The notes: a model not told the origin generated them from the sequence alone. 58,489 bases of DNA from Candidatus Cloacimonadota bacterium (GCA_030595905.1 JAUVLE010000001.1:1-58489), one strand, 5' to 3'. Counted from the first letter of the stretch, positions 24,083-41,637 are shown. Numbers and translations: made by a program.

Positions 24083-24098
24083 TTTTTCTCCTTCTTTT

Positions 24099-24612: not shown

Positions 24613-24638
24613 GATTTGTTAGTTTGGTTCGTTGCTAA
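24613..24638. repeat. inverted copy of the TTAGCAACGAAC...ACTAAC repeat upstream of the GxxExxY gene
   Basis: gatttgttagtttggttcgttgctaa is the reverse complement of TTAGCAACGAACCAAACTAACAAATC. In addition, aactaacaaa (24587-24596) pairs with tttgttagtt (24616-24625). Confidence 0.75.
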
Positions 24639-24641
24639 TCT

Positions 24642-25487
24642 TCATATCACTGCGCTTTTATGTCGTGCTGCATGGCACTGCACGTTCACCGCCACAGGCA
24701 TGGAAGCAATATGACATGGTTTTGATAAAATGAAAACACCAAGAGCCGTGGTTCTGCCACCCAGTCCCTGCGGTCCGATCCCCAGGTTATTGATTTTCTC
24801 TAAAATTTCTTCTTCCACTTTCGCCCATTTCGGATCAGGATTTTTTTGATCTAATGAACGCAGTAAAGATTTTTTTGCCAGAAGTGCACTCTGTTCAAAA
24901 TCACCACCGAGTCCGATTCCAACAACAACCGGCGGGCAGGGATTTCCACCTGATCTGCTGATCCTGTCCACAACGAAATCCACAACTCCTTCGATCCCGT
25001 CGGCAGCTTTCATCATTTTTACTTCGCTCATATTTTCCGAACCGCCGCCTTTGGGTGCAACCGTAATTTTTATTTTATCACCCGGAACAATATCCGTATA
25101 AATGAGCGCCGGAGTATTATCTTTTGTGTTCTTTCGCTCGATTATCGGGTCGTCAACCATCGACTTTCGCAGATATCCGTCTTTATAACCCTGACGAACT
25201 CCTTCATTAATTGCTTCGACAAAATCTCCTCCAACAAGATGAACATCCTGTCCAAGCTCGATAAATACAACTGCCACGCCGGTATCCTGACATATCGGCA
25301 TTTTCTCTTTTGCAGATAGTTCATAGTTTTCCAGGAGGATCGAAAGTACTTCCTTGCCGGTTTCCGATTCTTCCTTTTCATAGAATTCTTTGATCTTCTT
25401 AATCACATCTTCACCAATATAATAATTGGCATCGATACACAACTTCCTGATAACAGGAATGATCTCTTTCACATCGATCTGGCGCAT
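24642..25487 (-). CDS. class I fumarate hydratase, alpha (N-terminal domain) subunit
   Basis: 281 aa. MPICQDTG, GGGSEN and other features of the Fe-S type hydro-lyase alpha subunit (FumA N-terminus/TtdA type). Confidence 0.85.
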   Translation of the reverse strand: MRQIDVKEIIPVIRKLCIDANYYIGEDVIKKIKEFYEKEESETGKEVLSILLENYELSAKEKMPICQDTGVAVVFIELGQDVHLVGGDFVEAINEGVRQGYKDGYLRKSMVDDPIIERKNTKDNTPALIYTDIVPGDKIKITVAPKGGGSENMSEVKMMKAADGIEGVVDFVVDRISRSGGNPCPPVVVGIGLGGDFEQSALLAKKSLLRSLDQKNPDPKWAKVEEEILEKINNLGIGPQGLGGRTTALGVFILSKPCHIASMPVAVNVQCHAARHKSAVI

Positions 25488-25519: not shown

Positions 25520-28093
25520 TCAATTAACTGAAGTAATATAATAGAATTTTTTATTATCCGCTGTTGGAAGCGGTGCAGTCCAGCTTGTTTCATTATATGA
25601 TCCGGTAAAATCTTCGTCAAAACCCGAATAAGGATCATTTGACGAATATACTTTATAAGTATTTCTATTGCGAGCAGCAGACCAGGTGAAATAAACCGAA
25701 TCTGCATTGATAGTTACCCTGACATCTAATGGAACAGGAGGACTTACAGCTTCATCCTGATGGAAATAAAAAGCACCCATATCTGCTATTGTGGTATCAG
25801 GATCAAGTGGTGAGTAAAGACTACCGGTATCGATACATGGTGATTTTGTTTCATCATTTACAGGATAATTTGCCCAGGTTATTTGATAATCACCGTTGAC
25901 AGGATCAGCAAATAAAGGATTGGCATCAATATTACCATCACCTGGACTTCCACCTTCAACATCAGAATATTCTACTGTTACAGAACAGAAACCGTCTTCT
26001 CCAATTTCATGTGGTATGTCGTCCCAGAGTATGCAGTTTGTAAAATCAGGAAAGCTATAATTACAGGAATATAACCCACCTCCTGGATTCGGAGAATTAT
26101 GATTTGCCGTATTATTACTTATAGTAACATTTGTTAAATCAGGATAACAAAAATGGTCGCAGTATATTCCACCTCCAAGACCGAAAGCTTCACTTACAGC
26201 TTCATTGTTATAGATACAATCATTTTCTAAAATAGGTGTACAATTTTCCCAAATATGAATACCGCCACCTGCTTCTTCTGAAGTATTATCTCTGATTATT
26301 GAACGTTTTATTGTTGGACTTGAATAATTATAAATGAAGATCCCGCCACCGCCGCCTGTAGATGAATTATTGGAAATGATGCAATTATTTATTAGAATAT
26401 CTGAATTATTAAGATAAATTGCTCCACCATTATTATTGGGATAAGTTCCGCTTGCTTTTCCGTATTGCAGCTTACAATAAGATAATATTGAGTTATCCTG
26501 TCCGTTTGTGTTTTGATCGATAAAGCGGAGTCCATTCCAACCTGCTGTAGAATCTTGCGGAACAAAATTAATGTATCTCTGCCAATTTCCTTCTGCTAAT
26601 AATCTACCATAAATATTAAATTTATAATGTTCATTGAAAACAACATCCACTCCGGGTTCAATTGTTAATTGACTTCCATTCGGAATTGTTATTTCGCCAT
26701 TAATACAATAAGGACTGTTTGCATGCGTCCAGGTGCCACTGACAGCTCCACCTGCTATCTGGGTATTACAATTCCAGTCATTTGTAATATGATAAAATGT
26801 GGCATAATCCCAGGCTGCATCACCACTGTCAATAAACCATGTCATAGTCCTATCAATATTATTTGTTGTATGCGCACCGAATAATTCGTTTCCATAATCA
26901 TCATAACCATGACAAATAATTGCATGTTTATAATGACCTTGATATTGACCTGTACCTCCTTCATGAAATCCAATAATTGCAATATCACCAACAGTAAAAT
27001 TTGCAGGAATATGGTTATTAGGCTCTACTCCATTTTCCCAGCCATTAGTATGAAAATCAACAATATTTGTCTCAATATCAGATTGTACTGAAAGGAAATT
27101 ATGCAGATTGCTACAGTTTACAATGCAGCCTTCTGCATTTGCATTATTTGCATAGGTTATATCCTCATAATAACCGGCAATTAAACATTGAGATGCAAAA
27201 TTGCAGCAATCACCACCTTGAGAAGCATAGTTTGTATATGCAGAATTATAATATGTCGAATCAGGTCCCCAATATTGTATACAATAATTTGCTGAAGCTT
27301 GTCCATTCCAATCTAAATCTCTACCTTTGAAATTTAAATTATTAATTTTATCATTATTATCTTTAGTTTCTATCTTTTTTTTGTCTTTATTTTCAATTTT
27401 ATTCTGTAATATTTTTAAACCCGCTTTAGCTACTTTCCTTATTGTTTGAATACAGGTCATCCTTCGATATTGTTCTGTTTTACCTTTCCAATAGATAGAA
27501 TTTTTATCAGGATAACCAGTATATTCTATATTCCATTTGTCTGAATTTATTCCATTTGCATAATATTCAAGCTTATCTATAATCAAGTTATCAGAAATCC
27601 CCATATAGACAAGTGTTCTTGCAGCAGAAACCTGCAATGCAGGATATTCATCATCAAGAAATTCATAGAGTTTTTTAATTATTATGGGTTTGTATTTGTT
27701 AATATATGAACTATCAGCATCAATTACAACATACTGTCCTGCCATCTTTAGCCACTCTATTGAGCGAGGGTCCAATCCTCCTTCCGGTTTATACCACCAT
27801 TTCGAGATGTAATCGATTCCCCATTTTTGCGTTAATTTTGTGCCATAACACATATATTTATAATAATATTCAATCTCCCGAACATCACCACGCATAATTT
27901 GCATTTCTGCATCCGGTCCGGTTTCTTCATAAGCTATAGCGATTCCTTTTTCAAAACATGAATCCAGTTTTGATAGAATACGAATTTTTGCTTCTTCCCA
28001 ATAAGTTGGTCTTTCTTTTTCTGTTCCGTTTACATTAATCACATTAAGCAATAAAATAGAAAATATTACCAATAAAATTGCTTTCTTTTGCAT
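25520..28093 (-). CDS. secreted multidomain protein: Cys/His amidase-like domain, right-handed beta-helix repeats and an FN3-like tail
   Basis: 857 aa with a signal peptide. GGDCCNFASQCLIAGY plus a downstream KHAIICHGYD resemble the 'putative amidase domain' (Amidase_6) Cys/His pair. Repeated NNxxxxGGG(G)I(Y/H) units indicate a pectate-lyase-like beta-helix. The C-terminal ~60 aa are shared with the 53709 gene. There is no T9SS CTD. Confidence 0.65.
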   Translation of the reverse strand: MQKKAILLVIFSILLLNVINVNGTEKERPTYWEEAKIRILSKLDSCFEKGIAIAYEETGPDAEMQIMRGDVREIEYYYKYMCYGTKLTQKWGIDYISKWWYKPEGGLDPRSIEWLKMAGQYVVIDADSSYINKYKPIIIKKLYEFLDDEYPALQVSAARTLVYMGISDNLIIDKLEYYANGINSDKWNIEYTGYPDKNSIYWKGKTEQYRRMTCIQTIRKVAKAGLKILQNKIENKDKKKIETKDNNDKINNLNFKGRDLDWNGQASANYCIQYWGPDSTYYNSAYTNYASQGGDCCNFASQCLIAGYYEDITYANNANAEGCIVNCSNLHNFLSVQSDIETNIVDFHTNGWENGVEPNNHIPANFTVGDIAIIGFHEGGTGQYQGHYKHAIICHGYDDYGNELFGAHTTNNIDRTMTWFIDSGDAAWDYATFYHITNDWNCNTQIAGGAVSGTWTHANSPYCINGEITIPNGSQLTIEPGVDVVFNEHYKFNIYGRLLAEGNWQRYINFVPQDSTAGWNGLRFIDQNTNGQDNSILSYCKLQYGKASGTYPNNNGGAIYLNNSDILINNCIISNNSSTGGGGGIFIYNYSSPTIKRSIIRDNTSEEAGGGIHIWENCTPILENDCIYNNEAVSEAFGLGGGIYCDHFCYPDLTNVTISNNTANHNSPNPGGGLYSCNYSFPDFTNCILWDDIPHEIGEDGFCSVTVEYSDVEGGSPGDGNIDANPLFADPVNGDYQITWANYPVNDETKSPCIDTGSLYSPLDPDTTIADMGAFYFHQDEAVSPPVPLDVRVTINADSVYFTWSAARNRNTYKVYSSNDPYSGFDEDFTGSYNETSWTAPLPTADNKKFYYITSVN

Positions 28094-28422: not shown

Positions 28423-29295
28423 CTAACTTTTCAAAATCATTTTTATAGTTTCTCCCACAACAGCCGGATTTTCCGCAACTGCAACTCCGGCATATTTCAG
28501 TGCCTGGATTTTCTCCTGTGCTGTTCCTTTGCTTCCGGCAATTATCGCACCTGCATGTCCCATTCTTTTACCTTTGGGAGCGGTTTGTCCTGCGATGAAT
28601 GCTACTACCGGTTTGGAAAAATTCTCTTTGATATATTCGGCAGCCTGAATTTCCAGGTCACCGCCAATTTCACCAATCATCACCACAGCTTCGGTTTCCG
28701 GGTCGTCCCGGAATAATTTCAGAAGGTCTATGAATGTTGTTCCGATGATCGGATCTCCCCCGATGCCTACAGCAGTTGAGATTCCCAAACCTGCTTTAAC
28801 CACCTGGTTTGCCATTTCGTAAGTTAATGTGCCGGATTTGGAAATAAGTCCGATCGATCCTTTCTTGAATACAAATCCCGGCAGGATCCCTATCTTTGCT
28901 TCTTCCGATGTAATTATTCCCGGGCAGTTAGGACCTATCAGAACCGATCCATTCTTTTCTGCCAGTTTTTTGGCTATCATAATATCATTAACCGGAATTC
29001 CTTCCGTAATACAGACTACCACTTTAATACCGGCAGAAACAGCTTCCATGATCGCATCTGCGGCAAATGCAGGTGGAACAAATATCAGCGAAACATCGGC
29101 ACCTGTTTTTTGAACAGCTTCTTCCATCGTGTTAAAAACCGGTTTCCCTAAATGTATCTGACCGCCTTTACCGGGAGTTACACCTCCCACGATATTGGTG
29201 CCGTAAGCGATGCACTGTCCGGAATGAAAAGTTGCTTCTTTTCCTGTGAATCCCTGAACGAGCACTTTTGAATTTTTATTTACCAGGATACTCAT
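28423..29295 (-). CDS. sucD: succinyl-CoA synthetase alpha subunit
   Basis: 290 aa. [20 protein letters not shown] and the phosphohistidine loop MGHAGA. Confidence 0.95.
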
Positions 29296-30467
29296 TTCGT
29301 TACCCCTTTGGCAGCATTAACGGCTTTACGTGCACCGTCTGCAAAATCGACGGCAGTTATAATATTTTCAATATCTGCACTGCGTAAAATATCGGAAGCT
29401 TCCAAGGCATTTGTTCCATCCAGACGGACAATTACCGGAATTTTCACATTTGTTACTTTTGCAGCTTCGATTATTCCATTGGCTATTCTGTCACAACGAA
29501 CGATCCCGCCAAAAATATTTACGAATATCGCTTTCACGTTCGGGTCTTTCAGGATGATCTCGAATCCTTTTGCCACGGTTTCTGCGCTGGCTCCACCGCC
29601 CACATCCAGAAAATTTGCAGGTTCGCCGCCCTCGTGCTTGATGATATCCATCGTGGACATTGCCAGTCCCGCACCATTGACCATGCAGCCTACATCTCCA
29701 TCGAGTTTAACGTAATTGAGGTCATATTTTGCAGCTTCCAGTTCTGCAGGTTCTTCTTCATCCAGGTCTTTCATTGCGGCGATCTCAGGATTTCGGAAGA
29801 GAGCATTATCATCGAATCCCATCTTTCCATCGAGTGCAATGAATTTATCATCGGCAGTTAAAACCAGCGGATTGATCTCCACTAAATTGGCATCATTATC
29901 TTTGTAGGCATCATAGAGTGCAGAAGCAAACAACGCAAATTCCTTTATCTGCGGCTTGGAAAGATTAAGCCCGAAGGCAAGCTGCCTTGCATGAAAACTT
30001 CTGAATCCGATGAGCGGATCGATGGCAACTTTGATGATCTTCTCCGGCGTTTCGGCAGCCACTTTCTCGATCTCCACACCGCCTTCTGTGGAAGCCATCA
30101 TTACGGGCATTTCCTGTGCTCTATCCAGAACCATTCCGAGGTAAAATTCTTTTTTGATGTTTACTCCACCTTCGATGTAAACTTTTTTCACTACTTTTCC
30201 GGCAGGTCCGGTCTGATGTGTAATCAATGTCATTTCCAGAATTTCGGAAGCATATTTTTCTACTTCCTCAAGCGATCTGGCAAGTTTTACACCGCCGCCT
30301 TTTCCTCTTCCGCCGGCATGGATCTGAGCTTTTACTGCCCAGATATTTCCTCCGATCTCTAAAGCAGCATTTCTTGCATCTTCCGGCTTTTCGATCATTT
30401 TTCCTTTGGGAATCGGAACGCTATATTTTGCAAATATCTGCTTTGCCTGGTATTCATGAATATTCAT
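29292..30467 (-). CDS. sucC: succinyl-CoA synthetase beta subunit
   Basis: 391 aa. [12 protein letters not shown]..., an ATP-grasp fold, and GGIVRCD. The stop overlaps the sucD start. Confidence 0.95.
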
Positions 30468-30574: not shown

Positions 30575-31123
30575 TTATGAAAATTTGGTTTTTCTTCTTT
30601 CTTTAGTAACCCCAAGAGTTCTTGTAAATTGTATGAAGTACAATACTTTTTTGGGACCAATAAGTAAATAAACAGCAATTAATGTTTTTAATACTGATTC
30701 AATCAGTAGTCCAAGGTGAAATGAATTAATAGTAATTGTTGCACCTGAATTACTAAGTGCATAAGATATGATATTATATAAATTTTTTACTAAAGCTGGA
30801 ATTGCTGAAGCGAGTAAAAAGATACCGATGATTGAGAATATGAAAGGCTTTATTTTTTTTAAATTAAGATTAATAATTTTGCTTAAATCAGCTGTGTCAT
30901 TTACCATATGAGATGATATATTTTTAGCAAAAAACCATAAAATAATACCGATTATCAAATAACCTAACGGTAATAAAAAAAGTTGTATTAATTTATCATT
31001 AGTCATTATAATTTCATCTTGAGTGAAATAAAAAACAGCACTTTGTAAATAAATGACAAATTTAATAAAAACAGTTATTGCAATTATTTTGCAAGATAGC
31101 ATTGATATGTCTTTTAAAGTCAT
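30575..31123 (-). CDS. AT-rich polytopic membrane protein, function unknown
   Basis: 182 aa with about four or five hydrophobic helices. It sits between the Frd-like flavoprotein gene and sucC. Very AT-rich codon usage. Confidence 0.5.
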   Translation of the reverse strand: MTLKDISMLSCKIIAITVFIKFVIYLQSAVFYFTQDEIIMTNDKLIQLFLLPLGYLIIGIILWFFAKNISSHMVNDTADLSKIINLNLKKIKPFIFSIIGIFLLASAIPALVKNLYNIISYALSNSGATITINSFHLGLLIESVLKTLIAVYLLIGPKKVLYFIQFTRTLGVTKERRKTKFS

Positions 31124-31212: not shown

Positions 31213-32883
31213 CTAAAACAAAGTTCCATAATAATTAGTTGTAAGCTGTTTTGCTTTTACATGATCTGGGATGTAATCCGGTAAGATCATCGGTGAAACT
31301 TGTGATTTATCTATTCCTAATTTCTCTACTTCTTTTGCATAATTATCAACGTGTTCCAGAGTAAGTTTACCAAGCTGTACACCTTTTTTTACACGTTTTG
31401 CAGCAAAAATTCCGGATCTTCTTCCAAAAACAATAATATCGAGTTGGGAATTTCCCATTAAACGGTTTCTGCCGTGAACTCCACCGGAAGATTCACCTGC
31501 AACATAAAGTCCCGGAATTGAAGTTTCAGTTTTTTCGTTGATTTCCAATCCGCCGTTTTGATAATGCAGAGTAGGATAAACCAGCATCGGGTATTTCCTG
31601 ATGTCGATATCGAATCTCTGGAATTGACGAAGCATAGCGGGCAGATTTTTTTCGATCGTGCCTTCGCCACTCAATTCTTCGATGAGCGGGCTATCTAACC
31701 AGATCCCTTTCAAACCGGAAGGGGTTGTAACCCCACGGCCATTTTCACATTCACAGATAAATGCCGAAGCTTCCACATCTCTCGGTTCCAATGGGAATAC
31801 AAAAAGTTCACCATCATAATTCACAGGCTGCGCACCGAGTCCGCGGATCTTTTCCGTGCAAAGGAAACCGACGATCTGCTCCGGGAAAACAGCTCCTGTG
31901 GGATGATATTGCACAGAATCCATAAAGAGTAGATTTGCTCCTGCACGATAACCCATCACCAGTCCATCGGCAGTTGCACCATAGTGATTGGTTGTTTCAA
32001 AATTACGTATATGCAGTCTTCCAAAACCACCGGTTGCCATGATCACACTTTTTGCTTTTACAATAAAATACTCTTTTAATTCTATGTGATAAAGGATCGC
32101 ACCGGCAACCTGACCTTTGTCATCCATTATCAGTTCTGTAGCAGCAGTGTATTCCAGAATATCGATCTTATCCGGTTTGTTCTGTACTTCATCACGCAAT
32201 ACACGGCAGATCCCGGCTCCGGTATAATCACGCGTTGAATGCATTCTATTCCTGCAAGTTCCACCACCGGGTTTCACCATCATCGAACCGTCTTCTTTCT
32301 TATCGAACATCACACCCAGTTCTTCCAGCCATTTAATAGATTTCGGACCATCCATCACGAGAGCTTCCACCAGTTCAGGTTTATTATCAAAGTGTCCGCC
32401 GCCGATCACATCGAGATAATGCAGTCTGGGATTATCATCTTCCTGGTCTGCTGCCTGAATTCCACCCTGCGCCATCATGGAATTGGAATCTCCAAGCCGC
32501 AATTTGGTCACCAGCATAGTTTTCACATCGAGTCTGGCAGCTTCCAGAGCTGCGGAAAGTCCGGCAGAACCGGCACCGATGACAAGCACATCGGTTTCGT
32601 AATCGACTTTTGAAAGATCGAAAGTAGCGGAGAGATTGCGCGGATAAGCTTCCAGGATATTTACCACTTCGTTAATGAGCTTTTCACCTTTATTCGGCCC
32701 GATACGCAATTCTTTCAAGGCATCGGCTTTATAATCGGGATGATAAGTATTGAGAACATCCTCCCGCTCTTTTTCACCCATTGCGTCAAATACTTTTTTG
32801 CCGTATTTCCTTGCTATTTCCAGACGTTTTGGACGGGTTTTTTCAACTTTTTTTATAGATTCCTGCATATATTCCGGGTACAT
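31213..32883 (-). CDS. FAD flavoprotein of the fumarate reductase/succinate dehydrogenase family (soluble type, N-terminal extension)
   Basis: 556 aa. DVLVIGAGSAGLSAALEA dinucleotide fold, MAQGGI, ATGGFGRL, and HPTG and YVAGE...GVHG.NRL motifs of the FrdA/SdhA/TfrA family, preceded by about 95 extra residues. Confidence 0.8.
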   Translation of the reverse strand: MYPEYMQESIKKVEKTRPKRLEIARKYGKKVFDAMGEKEREDVLNTYHPDYKADALKELRIGPNKGEKLINEVVNILEAYPRNLSATFDLSKVDYETDVLVIGAGSAGLSAALEAARLDVKTMLVTKLRLGDSNSMMAQGGIQAADQEDDNPRLHYLDVIGGGHFDNKPELVEALVMDGPKSIKWLEELGVMFDKKEDGSMMVKPGGGTCRNRMHSTRDYTGAGICRVLRDEVQNKPDKIDILEYTAATELIMDDKGQVAGAILYHIELKEYFIVKAKSVIMATGGFGRLHIRNFETTNHYGATADGLVMGYRAGANLLFMDSVQYHPTGAVFPEQIVGFLCTEKIRGLGAQPVNYDGELFVFPLEPRDVEASAFICECENGRGVTTPSGLKGIWLDSPLIEELSGEGTIEKNLPAMLRQFQRFDIDIRKYPMLVYPTLHYQNGGLEINEKTETSIPGLYVAGESSGGVHGRNRLMGNSQLDIIVFGRRSGIFAAKRVKKGVQLGKLTLEHVDNYAKEVEKLGIDKSQVSPMILPDYIPDHVKAKQLTTNYYGTLF

Positions 32884-32894
32884 ATTTTCTCCTG

Positions 32895-33581
32895 TTACGA
32901 AATTTTAATTTCTCTTTTGTAATAGATCTTAGATAATTCATCATGCGGCATTTCTTTAAGTTCTTTGATCTCTTTATCGTATTTACCGCTTTTAATTTCT
33001 TCGAGACGTTTTTCTAATTCAGGACTTTTCTTAGCGAGATATTTTCCATAAAGACGACGTGCCAGAGTGGCGTTATTATACTGCACGATCTCTGCAGGAC
33101 AACGCATTGCACACAATCCGCAGCGAATACAATCGAAAGAAATATCCGCAGCTTTTGCTAGGTCTCCACGAATAATTGCCTGAATATAATCCATCACCTC
33201 GATATCCTGCGGACAGGCTTTGGTGCAGCTATTGCAGGAAACACATCGGAACACGGAAGGAAAAAGTTTGGTGAAAGTTCCAACATCGGGAGTCAGATCA
33301 TTCAGATCATAAATCGGTTTTTCCGCTGGAACGGATGGAATCTGTGTTATCGCCATTCCTTCCGACACAACCGTCTGACAGGCGAGTCCGCCCTTCAGCT
33401 TATAATCACCTTTTTCCCTGTAAACAGTTGCACAGGCTCCGCAATATCCTTCGCGGCATCCCACACCTTGTTTCAGTTGAAATCCGGCATATTCCAAAGC
33501 CATCATGATGGTAGAACCTTCCGGAACTTCGAAAAGCTCTCCGGTTAAATAAACTTTTATCATTTTTTGTTTTTCAGCCAT
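32895..33581 (-). CDS. FrdB/SdhB-like iron-sulfur subunit (2Fe-2S plus two cubane motifs)
   Basis: 228 aa. CREGYCGACAT (plant-type 2Fe-2S), CVSCNSCTKACP and CIRCGLCAMRCP. It lies 11 nt upstream of the flavoprotein gene. Confidence 0.8.
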   Translation of the reverse strand: MAEKQKMIKVYLTGELFEVPEGSTIMMALEYAGFQLKQGVGCREGYCGACATVYREKGDYKLKGGLACQTVVSEGMAITQIPSVPAEKPIYDLNDLTPDVGTFTKLFPSVFRCVSCNSCTKACPQDIEVMDYIQAIIRGDLAKAADISFDCIRCGLCAMRCPAEIVQYNNATLARRLYGKYLAKKSPELEKRLEEIKSGKYDKEIKELKEMPHDELSKIYYKREIKIS

Positions 33582-33657
33582 TATTTTTCTTCCTCCTTAA
33601 ATGGTTGCAGAAGATGATCCATCAACACTGGAGTCAATACTTCACAACCAGGGATTT

Positions 33658-34557
33658 TTATTTTATCAATTTTTTCTTTTTTAAAATATCTTCCGCATCG
33701 ATCTTATTAAATTCCAATCCAAGAGCTTCTTTGTTCAAACCGAGAGCAATTCCCATTAATTGGGTGAAATAAAAGATCGGGATCGTCTGGAAATCCGGAT
33801 TATCTTTTTTTATCTCGCTTTGACGAACATCCAGGTTGAAAGCGCATAACGGACACGAAGTAATGATCGCTTCCGCTCCATTTTTCCGGGCATCCAGGAT
33901 TATTCCTTTCACAAGAGTATAAACTATTTCTACATTATTTACAGTATGATAGCTTCCGCAACATCTACTTCCCGCATCCCAATCCACAGTTTCCGCTTTC
34001 AGAGATTTCACAAAATTTTCCAGAATTGTTGGTGCTTCCGCATCATCTATCCCAACTTCTTTGGGTCTGAGCAGCATACAACCGTAATAGGAAGCTACCT
34101 TTAAATCTTTAAGCGGTTTTGTAATTTTTTGTGCAAGTTTATCGAAACCCATTTCTTCCAGGATTGAAAGGAAGTGAACGACCTCGATATTGCCATCGTA
34201 ATTTTCTTCTTCTTTGTGCATAAAATCATTAATTTTTTGCAGATCATCGGCGTCATTTTTCATTCGTAGATTCGATAAGCTGAGAGTATTATAGCACATC
34301 GAACACAGGGTAAGCAGTCTGTTTTCATTTTCAACGAGTCCCTGTTTATTCATTTCCTGAACTCGCAGGAAATTACGAACCGGAGCGAGATGTCTCATCA
34401 GATCGTCACTGGTTAAAGATGCCACGACCCCACAACAATTCCAGCGTGGAAGTTCAATAAACTCAATTCCTATTTTTTTTGCAGATTCGATTGCGGACAT
34501 CTCAAAATTCTGTGCTGTAGTTTTTAATGTGCATCCAGGGAAATAAGGTATCTTCAT
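33658..34557 (-). CDS. HdrB-like / SdhE-like CCG-domain protein
   Basis: 299 aa with two cysteine-rich CCG-type motifs (...PRWNCCGVV... and ...GSRCCGSY...SCPLC). Confidence 0.8.
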   Translation of the reverse strand: MKIPYFPGCTLKTTAQNFEMSAIESAKKIGIEFIELPRWNCCGVVASLTSDDLMRHLAPVRNFLRVQEMNKQGLVENENRLLTLCSMCYNTLSLSNLRMKNDADDLQKINDFMHKEEENYDGNIEVVHFLSILEEMGFDKLAQKITKPLKDLKVASYYGCMLLRPKEVGIDDAEAPTILENFVKSLKAETVDWDAGSRCCGSYHTVNNVEIVYTLVKGIILDARKNGAEAIITSCPLCAFNLDVRQSEIKKDNPDFQTIPIFYFTQLMGIALGLNKEALGLEFNKIDAEDILKKKKLIK

Positions 34558-34655
34558 TTATTTTCTCCTAATATTTTATCAGTAGTTAACATAACTAAAA
34601 AAAAAAGAACTATAAAACATTTTTTTCATCTTTGCCTGTCCCGTTGTATAACCGG

Positions 34656-34678
34656 GGTTAGTTTTAGTTCGTTGCTAA
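34656..34678. repeat. TTAGCAACGAAC...ACTAAC family repeat (inverted copy) in the hdrC-hdrB spacer
   Basis: ggttagttttagttcgttgctaa. Compare 24613-24638, gatttgttagtttggttcgttgctaa. Confidence 0.7.
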
Positions 34679-34696
34679 TCCAATTTTCCATCTAAA

Positions 34697-35101
34697 TTAA
34701 CCTGTGAATTTTCTGAAACTTCCCACAACGGCTATCGTAGGTAATTTCAAGGCTTCTTCGTCACTGATCTCTTTAATATCGATCTCATCGATCGCTCCTC
34801 GCAATTTCACCTGTCTTAGTGCTTCGGAGACTTTTGAAAGATCGAGTTTTCGTGGACATCTTACCGTGCAGGTGAAGCAGGAAGCACAGAGCCACATTGT
34901 TTTGGAATCCATCACGCTTTCCTGTCCCAGCATTACCAAACGCATTATCTGTGATGGGTTGATATCCATTTCACTGACGAAAGGACAACCGGCTGAACAC
35001 GTTCCGCACTGTTCACAAAGAGTGATCTGCTCTCCACTCAATTCCGTTATTTTTTCAAGGAAATCAGTATTCTTATCTTTCAGTTTTATTATTTGTGCCA
35101 T
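34697..35101 (-). CDS. HdrC-like 2x[4Fe-4S] ferredoxin subunit
   Basis: 134 aa with CEQCGTCSAGCP and CASCFTCTVRCP. Confidence 0.8.
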   Translation of the reverse strand: MAQIIKLKDKNTDFLEKITELSGEQITLCEQCGTCSAGCPFVSEMDINPSQIMRLVMLGQESVMDSKTMWLCASCFTCTVRCPRKLDLSKVSEALRQVKLRGAIDEIDIKEISDEEALKLPTIAVVGSFRKFTG

Positions 35102-35104
35102 AAA

Positions 35105-37495
35105 TTATTCCTTTATTTCTTTGTTTGGAAGCAACTGCTTTTTCAATTCATCTGTAATCGGATCCATTTTATCGATCTTATCTGCAAGTTGATCGATCTC
35201 TGTAATAAATTTCATCATATCGGCGGCTGTAAATTGTGAGAAAACCAATCTTTCAGATTCTATATTCAGTTCTTTGAGTTTTTTCTTAACTACTTCTAAA
35301 TTTTTATTGGTCACGTTATTTGCCCATTCAAACCTGGAACTTTTCTCTGGACTATCACCGATGAAAACGGCATCTGCACCTTTGGCGAACGCAAATTGTA
35401 AAAGGTTCGGAGTTACCCTGCTTCCGCTTGGAATTCGGAGTACTCGAATGCAATCGGTATATTTCATTTTTCTCACACCGCAGGCATCGATAAGTCTGTA
35501 AGTTGTGTTGTCATCTGCAAAAACGAGAATACGTTTTTCATTTTCTTTTTTAAATTTCAGAACTGCTTCGATCTCTGCGTAAAGCTGTTTATTGGTGTAA
35601 TAGTTCAAGTCGAGTGCTTCGATTGGGCAGCTTTCGATGCAGGAACCACAACCGAGACACAGTGCTTCATTCACCGCAGCTTTTCCATCTGCATTCATAG
35701 AGATCGCTTTGGGAGGACACATCTCCAGGCATTTTTCACAGCCGTCACAGATTTCCTGGTGAACAAAAGCCAGAATCGGATCGAGCGGAACCTCTTTCTG
35801 GGCAAGGGTTGCAATCACTCTTGCAGCAGCAGCACTTGCCTGTGCAACAGTATCTGGGATATCTTTGGGACCTTGTGCCGTTCCAGCCAGGAATACTCCT
35901 TCCACGAGTGTATCGACAGGTTTATATTTAGGATGAGCTTCCTTAAAGAAACCATCATCACTTTTCGCCAGTTTCAAAGAATCTGCCACAATATCAGAAG
36001 ATTTACTTAATACCAATCCGTTTGCCAGAACCACAAGATCGAATTCCGTTTCGATAATATTGCGCGATAAAGTATCTTCAACTGTTATAATCACTTGTTT
36101 TGTTTCTTTATCTTCTGTGAAATGGGAAGGCTTTCCCCTGATGAATTTAATTCCCATTTTCTGAGATCTCTTATAATATTCTTCATATCCTTTTCCAAAA
36201 GCTCTCAGATCCGTGTAGAAAATATAGATATCTGTTTCCGGTTTTGCCTGTTTTAGAAGTGAAGCAAGTTTAACGGAATACATACAGCAAACCCTGGAAC
36301 AATATTCGTTGCCGACCTGTTCATCACGAGAACCCACACATTGCACGAATGCTACACGTTTCCCAACTTTCCTGGGTGGTTCGGCTTCTACGATATGATC
36401 CACAATCCTTTCCATTTCCATAGCTGTTACCACGTTTTCATATTTCCCGTAACCGAAAACGGATTTTTCCCTTGCATCAAAAATATCGTATCCCGTTGCA
36501 ACCACCACGCTATCTACAGCAACATTTATAATTTCTTCTTTCTGCTCAAAATCGATCACATTTTGCGGACATACTTCTGCACATTTTTTACAAGAGTTAT
36601 CTCTGAAATGCAAACAGTTTTCTGCATCGATAAGATATTTAAAAGGGATGGCATGCGGTGCCGGAATGTAGATCGCTTCCCTGTTGATAATTCCCTGCTC
36701 CCAGTAATTCGGCTGAGTTACAGGACATACTTCCGTACATTTATTACAACTCAGGCACAGGTCCATATTAACTGTGTCTTTGATGTAGCGCGGATGTTTT
36801 TTTACTCTTGCTTCAAAATGCAGCCTGTGCCCCACGATATCTTCTATTTCCGAATTTGTATAAAGCGTTATATTTGGATGATCAAGGATCGCAGCCATCT
36901 TTGGTGAAAGAATACAGGCGGCGCAATCTTCGGTCGGGAAAGTCTTTGTTAATATTGCCATATTCCCGCCGATAGTAGGCAGCTTCTCAACCAGAGTTAC
37001 TTTCTTGCCCGAGTCAGCCAGATCGAGAGAAGTCTGAATACCTGCAATTCCACCGCCAATGACCAGGATTTCATTGCCAAGCTGCATCTTCTTCTCTTCC
37101 AGAGGATAGTTCAGTTCGGCTTTGGCAAGAGCAGCATCGACGATATCCTTTGCTTTTTCAGTAGCAATTTCCGGAATATCTTTATGTATCCAGGAACAGT
37201 GTTCACGCAGATTTGCGATTTCGAGAACATAAGGATTCAGCCCTGCTTTTTTTAAAGTGGAACGAAATGTCTTTTCGTGAAAATGAGGAGAGCAGGAAGC
37301 AACAACTACTTTTTCCAATCCATTTTTTTTTATATCATCGATAATTAATTTTTGTCCTGCCCCGGAACACATGTGACTATTTATTTTGACCAAAATATTT
37401 TCATCATTCTTTTTTATATGCTCTGTAACACTGTTTAAATCTACAGTATTTGAAATGTTGCCACCACATTGACAGAGGTAAATTCCGGTTTTCAT
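35105..37495 (-). CDS. HdrA-like FAD/Fe-S oxidoreductase fused to an MvhD/FlpD-like domain
   Basis: 796 aa. N-terminal Cys cluster (YLCQCGGN...ASCSP), VIGGGIAGIQ FAD fold, internal and C-terminal ferredoxin motifs (CLSCNKCTEVCP, CKKCAEVCP, CDGCEKCLEMCP, CLGCGSCIESCP), and a C-terminal ILVFADDN...IRVLRIPSGSRV...GADAVFI segment of MvhD type. Confidence 0.85.
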   Translation of the reverse strand: MKTGIYLCQCGGNISNTVDLNSVTEHIKKNDENILVKINSHMCSGAGQKLIIDDIKKNGLEKVVVASCSPHFHEKTFRSTLKKAGLNPYVLEIANLREHCSWIHKDIPEIATEKAKDIVDAALAKAELNYPLEEKKMQLGNEILVIGGGIAGIQTSLDLADSGKKVTLVEKLPTIGGNMAILTKTFPTEDCAACILSPKMAAILDHPNITLYTNSEIEDIVGHRLHFEARVKKHPRYIKDTVNMDLCLSCNKCTEVCPVTQPNYWEQGIINREAIYIPAPHAIPFKYLIDAENCLHFRDNSCKKCAEVCPQNVIDFEQKEEIINVAVDSVVVATGYDIFDAREKSVFGYGKYENVVTAMEMERIVDHIVEAEPPRKVGKRVAFVQCVGSRDEQVGNEYCSRVCCMYSVKLASLLKQAKPETDIYIFYTDLRAFGKGYEEYYKRSQKMGIKFIRGKPSHFTEDKETKQVIITVEDTLSRNIIETEFDLVVLANGLVLSKSSDIVADSLKLAKSDDGFFKEAHPKYKPVDTLVEGVFLAGTAQGPKDIPDTVAQASAAAARVIATLAQKEVPLDPILAFVHQEICDGCEKCLEMCPPKAISMNADGKAAVNEALCLGCGSCIESCPIEALDLNYYTNKQLYAEIEAVLKFKKENEKRILVFADDNTTYRLIDACGVRKMKYTDCIRVLRIPSGSRVTPNLLQFAFAKGADAVFIGDSPEKSSRFEWANNVTNKNLEVVKKKLKELNIESERLVFSQFTAADMMKFITEIDQLADKIDKMDPITDELKKQLLPNKEIKE

Positions 37496-38003
37496 ATTAT
37501 GAAGCTCCTTTTATGTATATATGAATTTCTAATAGTTTCGGGGATATTATTTTTTAGTACGAATTTCTTATTTATTAAAATAAAAGATACAATTTGATTA
37601 TTGGTAAAAGAGTAAAAATCTTTTATCACTTAATCCCCTTAATTCTTTGGAAGAATCTTCCATTTTTTTTTAAAATAAAGTCGAACGATAATGAGTAACT
37701 CTATATGTCAAGCGATAAATATTTGTGGCTAAACTTCCAATTGAAAAGCGTTTATTTATCAGATGTTTAGACAATTTGTTAAATTAAAAAACCTTTTTTT
37801 AAAAAAGTAGTATTTATTTTCCCGGAATTAAAAGAAAGCACCGAAAAAAATTTCCAGTGCCGAAAATAACAGGTACAGTTTCGAGTCGATACTCTTATGA
37901 TTATAACTTTCCGAAACTTACTTTTAAAGATGTTCTATGTCTAAAGTTTCGTAAAGTTCTACTTGCAAATTGATTCGAGGTTCCCACGTTACACAGTACT
38001 CTT

Positions 38004-38027
38004 GTATCCAAGCCCCAGCTTGGATAC
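38004..38027. repeat. GTWTCCAAGCCC-N4-TTGGAWAC hairpin (copy 1)
   Basis: gtatccaagc-ccca-gcttggatac, a 10-bp perfect stem. The sister copy is at 51118-51141. A half-related word, gttaccaagctgggaac, follows about 30 nt downstream. Confidence 0.7.
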
Positions 38028-38150
38028 ACACATAGATCACCAATAAGATGAAAAAGGTTACCAAGCTGGGAACAGTGAAATAAATGAAAAGATTTCTAAA
38101 GGTTTTGTAACCAGAATATGTGGGTTTTTAAAAATAAAATTCAAATATAC

Positions 38151-38552
38151 TTATTTATTTTCTTCACACAATTCCACTAAAACGCCGCAGGTAGATTTTG
38201 GATGCAGGAAAGCAATGTTAGCATTGTGAGCACCTTTACGTGGAATTTCATCTATCAACTTTATGCCTTTTGTTTTAATTTCATCTAATCTGTCTTGCAG
38301 ATTGTCTGTGCCGAATGCGAGATGATGAATACCTTCACCTTTCTTTTCGATGAATTTTGCTATCGGGCTATTATTAGAAGTTGCTTCCAAGAGTTCGATC
38401 CTGACTTCACCGATGGGAATAAATGCAACTTTAACTTTTTGAGATTCAACCACTTCGACAGCTTCTAATTCCAGTCCAAGTTTCTTATAGAATTCAATTG
38501 CAGCTTCGATATCTTTAACGGCAATGCCAATGTGGTTAATTTTCTTCAGCAT
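38151..38552 (-). CDS. mce: methylmalonyl-CoA epimerase (VOC/glyoxalase fold)
   Basis: 133 aa. INHIGIAV.D...[14 protein letters not shown] and [12 protein letters not shown] are typical of Mce. Confidence 0.8.
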
Positions 38553-38592: not shown

Positions 38593-39153
38593 TCAATCCT
38601 TTTTTATATATTCATCAGCAAGTTTATAACCTATCTTCAAAGCCTTATTGTTCAGATCGACATATTGCGGTTTCACTGAATTCGTAACTGCTTTTTTGAG
38701 GGAAGCTTCGCTGACGACATCTGTTTTTCTTACCAGGAAGCCCAGAGTAATAATGTTGGTAGGAAGTTTTGTGCCGAGTTTTTTATGAGCAATATCTGTA
38801 AAAGGAAGTTCGTATATTTCCGTATCCAGAAGCGAGATGTTTTTTACAAATGTGTTATCTGCTATCAAAATACCATCGTCTTTCAGGTTTACAGAGTATT
38901 TATCACATGCTTCCTGGGTGAGGGCTAAAAGAACGTCGAATCTGGTTGCTTCGGGATAATAGAATTCGGCATTACTGATGATCACATCTGCCCTGCTGGC
39001 ACCACCGCGAGATTCCGGACCATAACTTTGCATCTGGGTAACATTTGCTTTATCCAGCACTGCTGCCCTGGCCAGAATGATGCCGGCTGTAATAAGACCT
39101 TGACCGCCGCTGCCGCTTAATCTTATCTCTTTTTTAAATATCCTTTTTCCCAT
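38593..39153 (-). CDS. 2-oxoacid:ferredoxin oxidoreductase gamma subunit
   Basis: 186 aa with the GSGGQG motif. It is last in a four-gene delta-alpha-beta-gamma unit. A 2-oxoglutarate substrate is suggested only by the neighbourhood (sucCD, mce). Confidence 0.8.
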   Translation of the reverse strand: MGKRIFKKEIRLSGSGGQGLITAGIILARAAVLDKANVTQMQSYGPESRGGASRADVIISNAEFYYPEATRFDVLLALTQEACDKYSVNLKDDGILIADNTFVKNISLLDTEIYELPFTDIAHKKLGTKLPTNIITLGFLVRKTDVVSEASLKKAVTNSVKPQYVDLNNKALKIGYKLADEYIKKD

Positions 39154-39989
39154 TATTTGCCTCCCTGCACTTTTTGAACAAGTTTTGCATACTCATCAGT
39201 GTATTCGGGACGGATCTCGTTTCTTAGTATCCCTCTTTTTATTTTTCCTTTTAACTTATCTTCAGGAAGTTTCTCCCAGGCTTTAAGAGAGACAGCATTT
39301 TTCTTCATAGCATTCATCATAGCGATAGCATCACCCTTTTTATTTAATTTTCCATAAATAACCGGGCAGGCACTTATGATCTCTACCAAAGAAAATCCTT
39401 TATGTTCTAAAGCCTGTTTAATAAATGATTGGGCTTCCAGGGCATGGTATGCTGTAGTTCTGGCAACAAACGTTGCACCCGCTCCCATAGCAAGTTCACA
39501 TATATCAAATACGGGATCGATATTACCATACGGTGTGGTAGTTGCTATGTCGCCTGTGGGAGTAGTAGGAGAATATTGTCCACCGGTCATCCCATATATG
39601 TAATTATTTATCAGGATAACGGTAAGATCGATATTTCGTCTGGCAGCATGAATAAAATGATTTCCACCGATAGCAGTTGCATCGCCATCGCCGGTTACGA
39701 CCATCACATTCATTTCCGGCTTGAACATTTTAATACCGGTGGCATAAGCTATTGCCCTGCCATGAAGACTGTGAAGCGTATTGAAATCTACATAAACCGG
39801 CATTCTGCTGGAGCATCCGATGCCGGAGACCATTGCCGTATTGCTTCTTTTCCATTTTAATTCGTCTATTGCTCTCATAATAGCACCAAGAACTATTCCA
39901 TTGCTGCAGCCGGGACACCACACGTGCGGGAATTTTTTCCTGTGCCGCAGGTATCTGGTATGAATTATTTTCTGAGGTATCTTTTGCAT
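39153..39989 (-). CDS. 2-oxoacid:ferredoxin oxidoreductase beta (TPP-binding) subunit
   Basis: 278 aa. CPGCSNG, GIGCSS and the TPP motif GDGD...GGNH...NN.IYGMTGGQ. Confidence 0.85.
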   Translation of the reverse strand: MQKIPQKIIHTRYLRHRKKFPHVWCPGCSNGIVLGAIMRAIDELKWKRSNTAMVSGIGCSSRMPVYVDFNTLHSLHGRAIAYATGIKMFKPEMNVMVVTGDGDATAIGGNHFIHAARRNIDLTVILINNYIYGMTGGQYSPTTPTGDIATTTPYGNIDPVFDICELAMGAGATFVARTTAYHALEAQSFIKQALEHKGFSLVEIISACPVIYGKLNKKGDAIAMMNAMKKNAVSLKAWEKLPEDKLKGKIKRGILRNEIRPEYTDEYAKLVQKVQGGK

Positions 39990-39990
39990 T

Positions 39991-41163
39991 TTACTTCACC
40001 TCCTTCATTTTATTGATAATATCTGCGGGAGTTATCAATTGCCCGTCGTTTTTCTGAATCGGAATTATTTTCCTGGATCTCCTGCTTTCATAATTCCAAA
40101 CACCGCCCATTGCCCGCTTTACTTCGTTTAGAAGTTGACCCTGATTTAATTCGGGAACAAAAATATTTCTTACATTTTTCATATACTTTCTGATAGCATC
40201 ATCGGGGAAAGGCCAAATGGTAAGAGGACGAAGCAAGCCAACCTTTTTACCTGATTTGCGAGCCATTAATACAGCAGTTTTAGCTGCTCTGGCACTAATG
40301 CCTGCCGCAAAGATCGCTGTACGTGCATCATCCATATAGAAGCTTTCTATCTGTACCAGATCATTTAAATGATGTTTGATCTTTTTGTCTAATCTTTCCA
40401 TCATGACCGCAGTTTCATCGGCTCTATTTGTTGGAAATCCGTAAGCGTCATGCGCCAAACCTGTTACATGGAAACGATAACCTTCTCCATAGCTGGCTAG
40501 CGGATGAATATATTTAGGATTATCTTCGTAATGTTTATACCATTCGGGTGGAATTGTAGGTTTGATCCTGTTAATGATCTTCACCTTTGCCAGGTCGGGA
40601 AGCGTTACGGCTTCTCTCATATGTCCCAGAACTTCATCCAATAACAGCACCACGCAAGTCCTGTATTTTTCGGATAGGTTTACAGCCCTGATGGCTAATT
40701 CATAACTTTCCAGGACAGAATCGGGATAAAGAACTATAGCTGGGGCATCACCATGATTTCCCCATCTGGTCTGCATGATGTCAGCCTGAGATGGTTTGGT
40801 CGGCAATCCGGTACTGGGACCGCCGCGCATTACGTTCACAACTACGCAGGGCGTCTCGGTCATTTTGGCAAAACCAATGCCTTCCTGCATTAGTGAAAAT
40901 CCGGGTCCGCTGGTAGCGGTCATAGTTTTGGCGCCGGCAAGTGAAGCGCCGATAATAGCAGAAATACTTGCGATCTCATCTTCCATCTGGATGAATTTTC
41001 CACCTCTTTTAGGAAGTTCTACAGAGCAGATTTCAGCAATTTCAGTGGAGGGTGTTATCGGGTAGCCTGCGAAGAAATTCACTCCGGCATCGATAGCACC
41101 ACGAGCGACAGCCTCATTTCCCTGCATTAAAACAACTTTTGATTCGATATTATTTTTTGTCAT
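39991..41163 (-). CDS. 2-oxoacid:ferredoxin oxidoreductase alpha subunit
   Basis: 390 aa. MQGNEAVARGAIDAGV.FFAGYPITPSTEI and TATSGPGFSLM. Confidence 0.85.
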   Translation of the reverse strand: MTKNNIESKVVLMQGNEAVARGAIDAGVNFFAGYPITPSTEIAEICSVELPKRGGKFIQMEDEIASISAIIGASLAGAKTMTATSGPGFSLMQEGIGFAKMTETPCVVVNVMRGGPSTGLPTKPSQADIMQTRWGNHGDAPAIVLYPDSVLESYELAIRAVNLSEKYRTCVVLLLDEVLGHMREAVTLPDLAKVKIINRIKPTIPPEWYKHYEDNPKYIHPLASYGEGYRFHVTGLAHDAYGFPTNRADETAVMMERLDKKIKHHLNDLVQIESFYMDDARTAIFAAGISARAAKTAVLMARKSGKKVGLLRPLTIWPFPDDAIRKYMKNVRNIFVPELNQGQLLNEVKRAMGGVWNYESRRSRKIIPIQKNDGQLITPADIINKMKEVK

Positions 41164-41172
41164 TTTATCTCC

Positions 41173-41493
41173 CTACTTTACCTTTGCACCTGTAATTGCA
41201 AAGTTTGGACATAATCTGTCACAGGTTTCACAGTGGGTACATTTTTCCGGATTCTTCACGTATGGTGAGCCGTCTGGCTTTCTTGCCAAAACGCCTGTAG
41301 GACAAAATGCAACACAGATACCACATTTAACACACCAATCATGAAAGATATAAACAGGAGATTTTTTATAATCTCCTTCGGTTTTTACCTCGGTATATTC
41401 AACTTCCATCTTTACCGGTGAATCATCCGTACGAATGATCGTACCCTCTTTGTGTTTTTCAACATCATTGGGTTTTCTTGCAATGTGCATCAT
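41173..41493 (-). CDS. 2-oxoacid:ferredoxin oxidoreductase delta subunit (2x[4Fe-4S] ferredoxin)
   Basis: CVKCGICVAFCP and CTHCETCDRLCP. AAGGAG sits directly before the ATGATG at 41493/41490, so the track start at 41520 is probably too long. Confidence 0.8.
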   Translation of the reverse strand: MMHIARKPNDVEKHKEGTIIRTDDSPVKMEVEYTEVKTEGDYKKSPVYIFHDWCVKCGICVAFCPTGVLARKPDGSPYVKNPEKCTHCETCDRLCPNFAITGAKVK

Positions 41494-41637
41494 AGCTCCT
41501 TGTAAATGCGATAATAGCATTCACTATTATGCTCAGATTTTATTTTTCTTTTCAAAAAATATAAATAGTTTTGATTCTTTATAAAAGGTATATTTAAAGC
41601 AATAACTTGAGAGTTCATTATATTTCAGTTCTCTAGA

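Follow-up and report, generated by a model that had tools for sequence, protein, structure and literature searches.

The question raised by the locus described here is whether fumarate, reduced in the cytoplasm, can serve as the electron acceptor that drives the formation of reduced ferredoxin. The locus is a block of five genes (31213-37495) on the minus strand of a 58,489-nt stretch of DNA from a Candidatus Cloacimonadota bacterium (GCA_030595905.1 JAUVLE010000001.1:1-58489); the whole stretch is referred to as the window, and all positions are counted on it. The genes encode an HdrA-MvhD fusion, an HdrC-like and an HdrB/SdhE-like protein, an iron-sulfur (Fe-S) protein and a flavoprotein of the Frd/Sdh/Tfr family, and, as judged from sequence and synteny, they are a real operon joining an HdrA-type electron-splitting module to a predicted membrane-free fumarate reductase. 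We consider the chances about even that they specify a cytoplasmic fumarate reductase that is independent of quinones and has HdrABC as its scaffold, in which fumarate reduction would drive ferredoxin reduction via HdrA, and the hypothesis of such a complex appears reasonable and well supported by comparative genomics. If true, Hdr-type electron bifurcation would gain a new high-potential couple in fumarate/succinate, and the system would explain both fumarate reduction by anaerobes without quinones and the source of low-potential ferredoxin for 2-oxoglutarate synthase in reductive branches of the tricarboxylic acid (TCA) cycle. Since the family is very widespread and highly conserved, with 57-85% identity between Cloacimonadota and members in Gammaproteobacteria and archaea, the mechanism would also have consequences for the way carbon is fixed and fermentations are balanced in sediments, oxygen-minimum zones and animal symbioses.

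Gene order and operon structure

A preliminary description of this DNA had given the five co-directional genes with their coordinates, lengths and gaps, and the open reading frame (ORF) listing of the window reproduced them exactly. From the hdrA side to the flavoprotein side the intergenic gaps are 3, 139, 76 and 11 nt, and a GGAG-like motif resembling a ribosome-binding site precedes each of the five genes. No terminator-like site was placed in the internal 139-nt or 76-nt gaps by a promoter and terminator scan. Upstream of the block, a 655-nt AT-rich spacer (37496-38150) lies between a methylmalonyl-CoA epimerase gene and hdrA, and a terminator-like hairpin on the minus strand within it (37837-37861), 5' of hdrA, may act as a divider between the hdr-frd unit and a unit formed by the epimerase gene and the genes of a 2-oxoacid:ferredoxin oxidoreductase (OFOR). 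Site counts in the region were not above shuffled expectation, so that the hairpin is weak evidence and the operon boundaries rest on the spacing and on the synteny in relatives. The Rfam scan of the window gave no match.

The Hdr-like proteins

The 796-aa product of the hdrA-mvhD fusion (35105-37495) is a full-length HdrA homologue, in which residues 3-646 align with residues 6-650 of the HdrA chain 5ODC_A (688 bits, E 1e-205), the flavin domain and both ferredoxin-type domains are present, and three CxxCxxCxxxC motifs occur. The MvhD/FlpD domain that follows (residues 656-777, positions 35165-35530; PF02662, 88.7 bits) was also recovered by the alignment of residues 651-780 with the MvhD chain 5ODC_D (E 7e-14), and it is presumed to be the entry point for electrons from a donor module. 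HdrA2 was the best NCBIfam model, matched over its full length at 887.6 bits, under the cut-off of 1100; because the equivalog cut-offs were not reached, the protein is regarded as an HdrA homologue and not as a curated coenzyme B-coenzyme M (CoB-CoM) enzyme.

The hdrC-like gene (34697-35101) encodes a 134-aa protein with two CxxCxxCxxxC motifs, predicted to carry two [4Fe-4S] clusters, which matches methanogen HdrC over residues 5-96 (E 4e-16) and is shorter than that protein (~185 aa). The hdrB/sdhE-like gene (33658-34557) encodes a 299-aa protein with two CCG domains (PF02754, two stretches) and ten cysteines, all of them aligned with methanogen HdrB (E 3e-39). Its top NCBIfam match is NF042965, the model for SdhE of methylmenaquinol:fumarate reductase, at 179.9 bits against a cut-off of 500, and the HdrB model scores nearly the same (173 bits), neither cut-off being reached; in a neighbour-joining tree of HdrB-like proteins it falls in the HdrB clade whose members adjoin the Fe-S gene. 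Domain, PDB and motif evidence thus agrees with the earlier reading of these proteins as HdrA with an MvhD/FlpD domain, HdrC with two cubane motifs and an HdrB/SdhE-like protein with two CCG motifs.

The flavoprotein and its Fe-S partner

The last gene of the block (31213-32883) encodes a 556-aa flavoprotein with a FAD_binding_2 domain at residues 98-479 (PF00890, 247.5 bits) and an N-terminal dinucleotide fold of the GxGxxG type (VLVIGAGSAGLSAA). TfrA (NF004900) was its best curated NCBIfam model, with 329.9 bits against a cut-off of 718. No curated NCBIfam cut-off was passed by the protein and Succ_DH_flav_C (PF02910) was not matched at E<=0.01, about 77 residues remaining after FAD_binding_2, two observations that the preliminary description did not mention. 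The match covered positions 6-425 of the 546 in the TfrA model, which means that the flavoprotein differs from TfrA by about 95 additional residues at the N-terminus and about 120 fewer at the C-terminus. Since FAD_binding_2 starts at residue 98, the N-terminal extension of about 95 aa reported earlier for this Frd/Sdh/Tfr-family protein is real. This segment (residues 1-97, positions 32593-32883) is family-specific and lies outside the TfrA model, it holds many invariant positions (M1 Y2 P3 Y5 ... H48 P49 D50), relatives in all phyla align from residue 1-2, and direct reading of its sequence revealed no twin-arginine motif.

The catalytic residues are preserved, since H327 (in HPTG), T343/E344, R368, H440 and R474 align with H242, T254/E255, R286, H354 and R399 of Escherichia coli SdhA. 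At the position of the covalent-FAD histidine (H45 of SdhA, H44 of FrdA) the alignment with both E. coli proteins places Asn134, and this residue and the aligned catalytic residues are invariant among 23 family members. A histidine carrying 8-alpha-FAD covalently is typical of membrane-bound reversible enzymes, and the FAD of the present flavoprotein is probably non-covalent; a non-covalent flavin, as in FrdA His44 variants and soluble fumarate reductases, goes with fumarate reduction and poor succinate oxidation. Moreover, Gly206 occupies the position of the NadB-specific glutamate, E. coli E121, which binds the amino group of the substrate in a stand-alone enzyme with no Fe-S partner, and NadB models score under the TfrA and Frd models. 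An AlphaFold2 model of moderate confidence (pLDDT 66, pTM 0.72) fits the Frd/Sdh fold: its best Foldseek matches were E. coli FrdA and mycobacterial SdhA (TM about 0.57), with further complex II flavoproteins and flavocytochrome c3 ranking next and no aspartate oxidase in the top 50, this search saying nothing reliable about the N-terminal extension. Taken together, the catalytic residues, Gly206 and the Frd/Sdh-like fold indicate that the substrate is very probably fumarate/succinate. The relationship to aspartate oxidase that had been named earlier as an alternative is not borne out by these results, nor by the constant adjacency of an Fe-S partner.

That partner is a 228-aa protein (32895-33581) corresponding to FrdB or to the N-terminal half of TfrB. 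It contains a plant-type [2Fe-2S] motif (C42x4C47x2C50...C68) and two full CxxCxxCxxxCP motifs, a pattern that points, as in TfrB, to one [2Fe-2S] cluster and a pair of [4Fe-4S] clusters, and not to the [3Fe-4S] cluster of most SdhB/FrdB proteins. Its overall similarity to FrdB/SdhB is weak (TfrB is best with 36.6 bits, and an SdhB in the PDB gives E 2.5e-7), a profile search of the family against PDB sequences did not rank SdhB/FrdB over generic ferredoxins, and the AlphaFold2 model (mean pLDDT 46.9) was too poor for a fold search. The FrdB-like label, given to the protein from the start, therefore stands chiefly on the cluster-motif pattern and the invariable adjacency to the flavoprotein gene. 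Besides, positions 19-87, 121-217 and 262-472 of the TfrB model are matched by the Fe-S protein, HdrC and HdrB, respectively, and these consecutive segments provide 'Rosetta stone' fusion evidence for the linkage of the three proteins. The same matches, combined with the role of CCG proteins as SdhE partners, make a physical contact of HdrB with the Fe-S protein plausible.

Conservation of the cluster among relatives

Scanning one genome per species confirmed 581 relatives of the flavoprotein, of which the best 80 were kept and their loci (given L numbers below) searched by tblastn with the window proteins. Identity to the flavoprotein was 70-97% for public proteins of 556-558 aa, which align with it from residue 1, and 57-90% for the best 80 relatives. 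The latter are distributed over Cloacimonadota, Marinimicrobia/Fidelibacterota, Delongbacteria, Aminicenantes, Sumerlaeota, Omnitrophota, Stahlbacteria, Anaerolineae, Myxococcales, Alpha- and Gammaproteobacteria (Thiococcus pfennigii, a Sedimenticolaceae genome and the Escarpia laminata symbiont) and, among the archaea, Theionarchaea, Thermococci and Halobacteriota. Wherever the Fe-S gene is present, it immediately precedes the flavoprotein gene (75/75 loci). Among the 55 loci whose upstream flank reaches 6 kb or more, 47 have at least one Hdr-like gene within 10 kb, and the taxa concerned include Cloacimonadota, Marinimicrobia, Delongbacteria, Aminicenantes, Omnitrophota, Gamma- and Alphaproteobacteria, Anaerolineae and Theionarchaea. 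The synteny check proposed in the preliminary description thus had a positive outcome, and on the evidence of gene order the linkage between Hdr, Fe-S and flavoprotein genes is not a matter of chance.

Four arrangements were distinguished. The compact order hdrA/mvhD-hdrC-hdrB-FeS-Flav, as in the window, was found in L002, L008, L010, L015, L019, L025, L026 and L055. In proteobacteria, Aminicenantes, Omnitrophota and metagenome-assembled genomes (MAGs) labelled Eubacteriales the order is hdrC-hdrB-OFOR-hdrA ... FeS-Flav or FeS-Flav-hdrC-hdrB-OFOR-hdrA, and Marinimicrobia have hdrC-hdrB-hdrA-mvhD-hycI-FeS-Flav-mvhG-(putative mvhA), to which a form with two hdrA genes in Ca. Celaenobacter is related; in the Marinimicrobia and Celaenobacter loci mvhG alone was scanned, and the ORF of about 490 aa that follows is assumed to be mvhA. 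Finally, two Theionarchaea loci (L071, L079) contain hdrC-hdrB-FeS-Flav with no hdrA nearby. The HdrB-like proteins sort by cluster architecture in the neighbour-joining tree. In addition, 28 of the 80 loci show OFOR genes in linkage with Hdr/Frd genes, often placed between hdrB and hdrA, and the cluster is frequently flanked by the genes for fumarase, malic enzyme and SucCD. Directly after the flavoprotein gene, sucCD occurs in L001, L002, L005, L010, L035 and L042, at a distance of 13-26 nt in the closest relatives, and the fumarase/malic enzyme order of the window is kept in L002 and L010. In L002, fourteen genes from OFOR-delta to malic enzyme are on one strand with gaps <40 nt, hdrA following the OFOR gamma gene by 22 nt with no epimerase gene.

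Proposed mechanism and direction of the reaction

From the gene content, the intact domains and cofactor motifs, the catalytic residues and the conserved linkage, we infer a physical complex, an electron path, bifurcation and its direction as follows. A mid-potential donor would pass electron pairs, probably via the [2Fe-2S] cluster of the fused MvhD domain, to the flavin of HdrA. One electron would then run downhill, first through HdrC (two [4Fe-4S] clusters), linked to HdrA as in the methanogen complex, next through HdrB with its two non-cubane clusters, and then through the 228-aa Fe-S protein. It would arrive at the non-covalent FAD of the 556-aa flavoprotein, which would reduce fumarate to succinate, fumarate taking the place of the methanogen heterodisulfide as high-potential acceptor. 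The other electron would move uphill through the ferredoxin domains of HdrA to ferredoxin, and the reduced ferredoxin would feed the neighbouring four-subunit OFOR, which is 2-oxoglutarate-like (38593-41520). Malic enzyme and the alpha and beta subunits of a class I fumarase (21848-25487), the reductase, succinyl-CoA synthetase (SCS; sucC and sucD, 28423-30467) and the OFOR, whose genes are all on the minus strand, could form a reductive branch that starts at pyruvate or malate and reaches succinyl-CoA; carbon would pass on from there to 2-oxoglutarate or, via methylmalonyl-CoA, to propionate. The methylmalonyl-CoA epimerase gene on the same strand (38151-38552; TIGR03081, 155 bits, above cut-off) suggests this extra exit to propionate, and all the neighbours listed in the preliminary description were confirmed in the window.

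A narrower proposal is that the compact five-gene form is itself a self-contained bifurcating enzyme with fumarate as acceptor, the HdrB clusters acting as a relay to the FrdB-like subunit and not as a thiol/disulfide site; we regard this as possible, but with less than even confidence. As the smallest architecture found, it would be the best candidate for demonstrating such a class of bifurcating enzymes, and the present locus is of value as a minimal version, made up of five contiguous genes, that is suited to expression and structure work.

With regard to direction, the reaction of fumarate with NADH yields -58 kJ/mol (2026 review). By our own arithmetic the reduction of ferredoxin (-440 mV) with NADH costs about +23 kJ/mol, which that yield covers, so that the bifurcating direction is favoured; from the review values, the bifurcating direction comes to about -35 kJ/mol and the confurcating direction to about +35 kJ/mol under standard conditions. 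For the enzyme to run backwards, metabolite ratios would have to be extreme and the flavin suited to succinate oxidation, and fumarate reduction is more likely than succinate oxidation.

The opposite assignment had been preferred at the outset, namely a syntroph that must drive uphill succinate oxidation. Stated as a mechanism, succinate and reduced ferredoxin would be co-oxidised by a confurcating succinate dehydrogenase (SDH) with reduction of a mid-potential carrier, allowing membrane-free syntrophic oxidation of propionate or succinate. The methylmalonyl-CoA epimerase gene nearby, the reversibility in principle of Hdr-type complexes and the standing of Cloacimonadota as candidate propionate oxidisers agree with it, but Asn134 replaces the covalent-FAD histidine, and Frd variants with a non-covalent flavin lose succinate oxidation. 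It also faces the unfavourable energy balance given above, and relatives pair the system with H2-oxidising Mvh or NADH-oxidising Flx and with genes of the reductive TCA (rTCA) cycle. Moreover, the digester Cloacimonadota proposed as syntrophs are reported without SCS, SDH and malate dehydrogenase (MDH), which places the organism of the window in another physiological group than was first assumed; a survey of 'clade B' genomes lists SCS in 15/19 and SDH or fumarate reductase (FRD) in 3/19. The syntrophic reading was thus the least supported part of the preliminary description, and we consider succinate oxidation by confurcation very unlikely.

Weighing the proposed complex against other arrangements

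Several observations weigh against the proposed bifurcating complex and open the way to other arrangements. No electron-donor module (MvhAG, Flx, Fdh or an F420H2 site) was found in the operon or in the window ORFs scanned, the structure models are of low to moderate confidence, some relatives lack hdr genes or have them in duplicate, published expression data set tfrAB of Endoriftia apart from the rest of its cluster, and a 2026 review treats the bifurcating complex as still a suggestion.

The missing donor module is what a non-bifurcating ferredoxin:fumarate oxidoreductase would lead one to expect, in which ferredoxin reduced by the OFOR encoded just upstream would enter HdrA and both electrons would flow downhill with no energy coupling, an arrangement that would balance an amino-acid fermentation yielding succinate or propionate. 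About 480 mV would however be wasted in this way, the conserved fused MvhD domain would be left without a role, the HdrA protein is very close to the bifurcating methanogen enzyme, and relatives clearly attach modules for H2 (Mvh) or NADH (Flx) as donors; we judge an uncoupled enzyme very unlikely. Under the bifurcating reading, the fused MvhD domain suggests instead that a docking donor is encoded elsewhere. Beside the compact clusters only genes for tetratricopeptide repeat (TPR) proteins, a DsrE-like protein, an aldehyde:ferredoxin oxidoreductase (AFOR) and unrelated proteins were seen, with no conserved donor gene among them; the AFOR gene (5452-7194) comes immediately after the flavoprotein gene in L008, a MAG labelled Spirochaetales.

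Some loci also show that the Fe-S/flavoprotein pair occurs apart from hdr genes. Eight of the 55 loci with enough flank have no hdr gene within 10 kb (L005, L007, L012, L013, L035, L042, L049 and L075), and two of them, from Cloacimonadota (L005 and L035, the latter Ca. Tenebribacter mawsonii), keep the order OFOR-epimerase-FeS-Flav-sucCD of the window, so that the pair can exist without adjacent Hdr. It could accordingly be an autonomous soluble fumarate reductase served by a different donor, its hdr linkage reflecting co-regulation with a module that generates ferredoxin for the OFOR. This would agree with the expression of tfrAB being uncoupled from that of the rest of the Endoriftia cluster, which is otherwise co-expressed (Mitchell 2024), and with AB-only reductases being common among rTCA organisms (2026 review). 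On the other hand, 85% of loci show the linkage, in several gene orders and in phyla very distant from one another, the pair is inserted inside Hdr-Mvh operons, HdrB clades track cluster architecture, and CCG proteins are known partners of FrdAB-like dimers, as in the TfrB fusion and SdhE. An independent reductase is, in our estimation, quite unlikely.

A third arrangement divides the five proteins between two enzymes, HdrA with HdrBC being a bifurcating disulfide reductase, and the Fe-S protein, flavoprotein and CCG protein being a thiol:fumarate reductase of the type of Methanothermobacter TfrAB, with a small thiol or a DsrC/TusA-type protein cycling between both. Methanogen TfrAB and HdrABC operate in this manner. 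Furthermore, L018 and L057 have two hdrCB pairs each, one of the window type and one beside hdrA (positions 787-2037 and 4578-8353 in L018, 706-2027 and 2479-5696 in L057), which hints that some organisms keep a dedicated hdrCB pair for the fumarate reductase, and which the two-enzyme arrangement fits at least as well as a single complex. The archaeal L071 and L079 clusters without hdrA point the same way, as does a DsrE-like gene directly upstream of hdrA in L025; this DsrE/DsrF-like gene (4618-4980), followed by a 71-aa ORF ahead of the compact hdrA-mvhD, could be a sulfur- or thiol-carrier link. Against two enzymes, the single HdrB of the window operon would leave either the Hdr or the Tfr without a thiol/disulfide site, the operon encodes no carrier, and a wire leading to HdrA accounts better for the occurrence of an HdrC beside HdrB and the Fe-S protein. 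To our knowledge, CoM and CoB are not known from these bacteria, and no CoM/CoB biosynthesis genes were seen in the window. Two enzymes sharing a carrier are on this evidence unlikely.

Other genes of the window

Between the flavoprotein gene and sucC lies a 182-aa ORF (30575-31123, minus strand) with about four hydrophobic segments and two histidines. Neither Pfam nor NCBIfam gave a match for it, and the 80 related loci contain no homologue even when the threshold is relaxed to E<=10; it was consequently rejected as a conserved membrane anchor; by comparison with the relatives it is a lineage-specific insertion. The earlier remark that no anchor is adjacent thus remains valid for a conserved anchor, although this hydrophobic ORF does lie beside the flavoprotein gene.

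Other insertions were noted in the region. The sucD-fumA junction, which spans only about 20-90 nt in L002, L010 and L035, is interrupted in the window by a gene for an 857-aa protein with a beta-helix and an Amidase_6 domain (25520-28093, minus strand), and the genes for fumarase alpha and beta are separated by a small GxxExxY-family gene (24178-24573, minus strand). Likewise, hdrA and mvhD of the Marinimicrobia locus L011 have a 23S-rRNA-IVP-family gene (7872-8222) between them, and these metabolic operons appear to have received insertions of genes for small helical proteins. Further away, two tandem genes of about 480 aa (43936-45390 and 45440-46867, minus strand), each with a C-terminal T9SS sorting domain, probably encode paralogous secreted proteins. 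No ATP-citrate lyase is visible in the window.

Comparison with known systems

The view of one cytoplasmic, HdrA-linked system expressed in the preliminary description is upheld by the synteny across phyla, the catalytic residues and the matches to segments of TfrB, but it cannot be claimed as a novel idea: both the tfrAB-hdr-kor linkage and the bifurcation hypothesis have been published, also for Cloacimonadota, and do not constitute a new finding here. No match to the exact phrase 'bifurcating fumarate reductase' was obtained in the literature searched. In tubeworm symbionts, Thioflavicoccus mobilis and the RIFOXYD12 genome, tfrAB is interspersed with flxABCD-hdrABC and korABCD, and the proposed complex passes electrons to 2-oxoglutarate:ferredoxin oxidoreductase (OGOR) and fumarate reductase (Rubin-Blum 2019). 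Two of those genomes are among our relatives, the Escarpia laminata symbiont (L076) and RIFOXYD12 (L066), with 59-60% and 52-54% identity in the same flavoprotein and Fe-S families, respectively. The tubeworm-symbiont cluster resembles the window in its linked hdrA, hdrB and hdrC genes, its four-subunit OFOR and the same published hypothesis of fumarate/ferredoxin bifurcation. It differs in having the OFOR between hdrB and hdrA and in the presence of Flx (NADH) genes, whereas the window has five contiguous genes, a fused HdrA-MvhD, no donor module and a Cloacimonadota-like anaerobe as host.

In Antarctic Cloacimonadota, thiol:fumarate reductase (TFR), OGOR, fumarase, SCS, Mvh and Hdr were found in one cluster and read as a CoM/CoB-type TFR within the reverse TCA cycle (Williams 2021). 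The phylum, the TFR-like pair, OGOR, fumarase, SCS and Hdr are shared with the window, and Ca. Celaenobacter (L031) and Ca. Tenebribacter (L035) were among the relatives recovered. Unlike the window, Celaenobacter has two HdrA genes and a separate MvhD, its pair being followed by a gene for a NiFe-hydrogenase small subunit and then by a 487-aa ORF, the putative large subunit, and Tenebribacter has no hdr at the locus.

Hydrogenobacter thermophilus has a five-subunit soluble NADH:fumarate reductase (Miura 2008), which, compared by description, is like the present system soluble, multi-subunit, quinone-independent and in the service of a reductive TCA route, and unlike it has dispersed genes and uses NADH without known bifurcation. 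The Hydrogenobacter-type C, D and E subunits in Aquifex are of about 59, 53 and 19 kDa and are differently annotated, and the table of Aquifex homologues did not bear out an HdrB/HdrC-like nature of FrdC and FrdD.

A CCG protein (SdhE) together with an FrdAB-like dimer is also found in type E succinate:quinone oxidoreductase (SQR) and in Campylobacter MfrABE. Those enzymes are associated with the membrane or periplasm and linked to quinones, whereas the SdhE score of the window protein is below cut-off and the flavoprotein has no twin-arginine motif. The HdrA-MvhD fusion recalls HdrA2B2C2 of Methanosarcina acetivorans, with a sub-cut-off score for HdrA2; that enzyme uses F420H2 and heterodisulfide, neither of which is expected in this Cloacimonadota organism.

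Methanothermobacter TfrAB is a soluble, quinone-independent enzyme that serves the reductive branch to 2-oxoglutarate. TfrA is the top curated model for the flavoprotein, and TfrB combines an FrdB-like part with CCG domains, the same modules as in the window, where the functions of TfrB are split over three genes and the flavoprotein has the longer N-terminus and shorter C-terminus described above; the thiol substrates of TfrAB are unlikely in bacteria. Finally, the MvhAGD-HdrABC complex of hydrogenotrophic methanogens (5ODC) has homologues of the HdrA, HdrB, HdrC and MvhD of the window, with complete cofactor motifs. The window operon encodes no hydrogenase, its HdrC falls about 50 aa short of the methanogen protein, and its MvhD forms a single chain with HdrA. 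Bifurcation site and wiring are proposed to be alike in both systems, with fumarate, reached through the added Fe-S/flavoprotein pair, as the proposed acceptor in the window instead of CoM-S-S-CoB.

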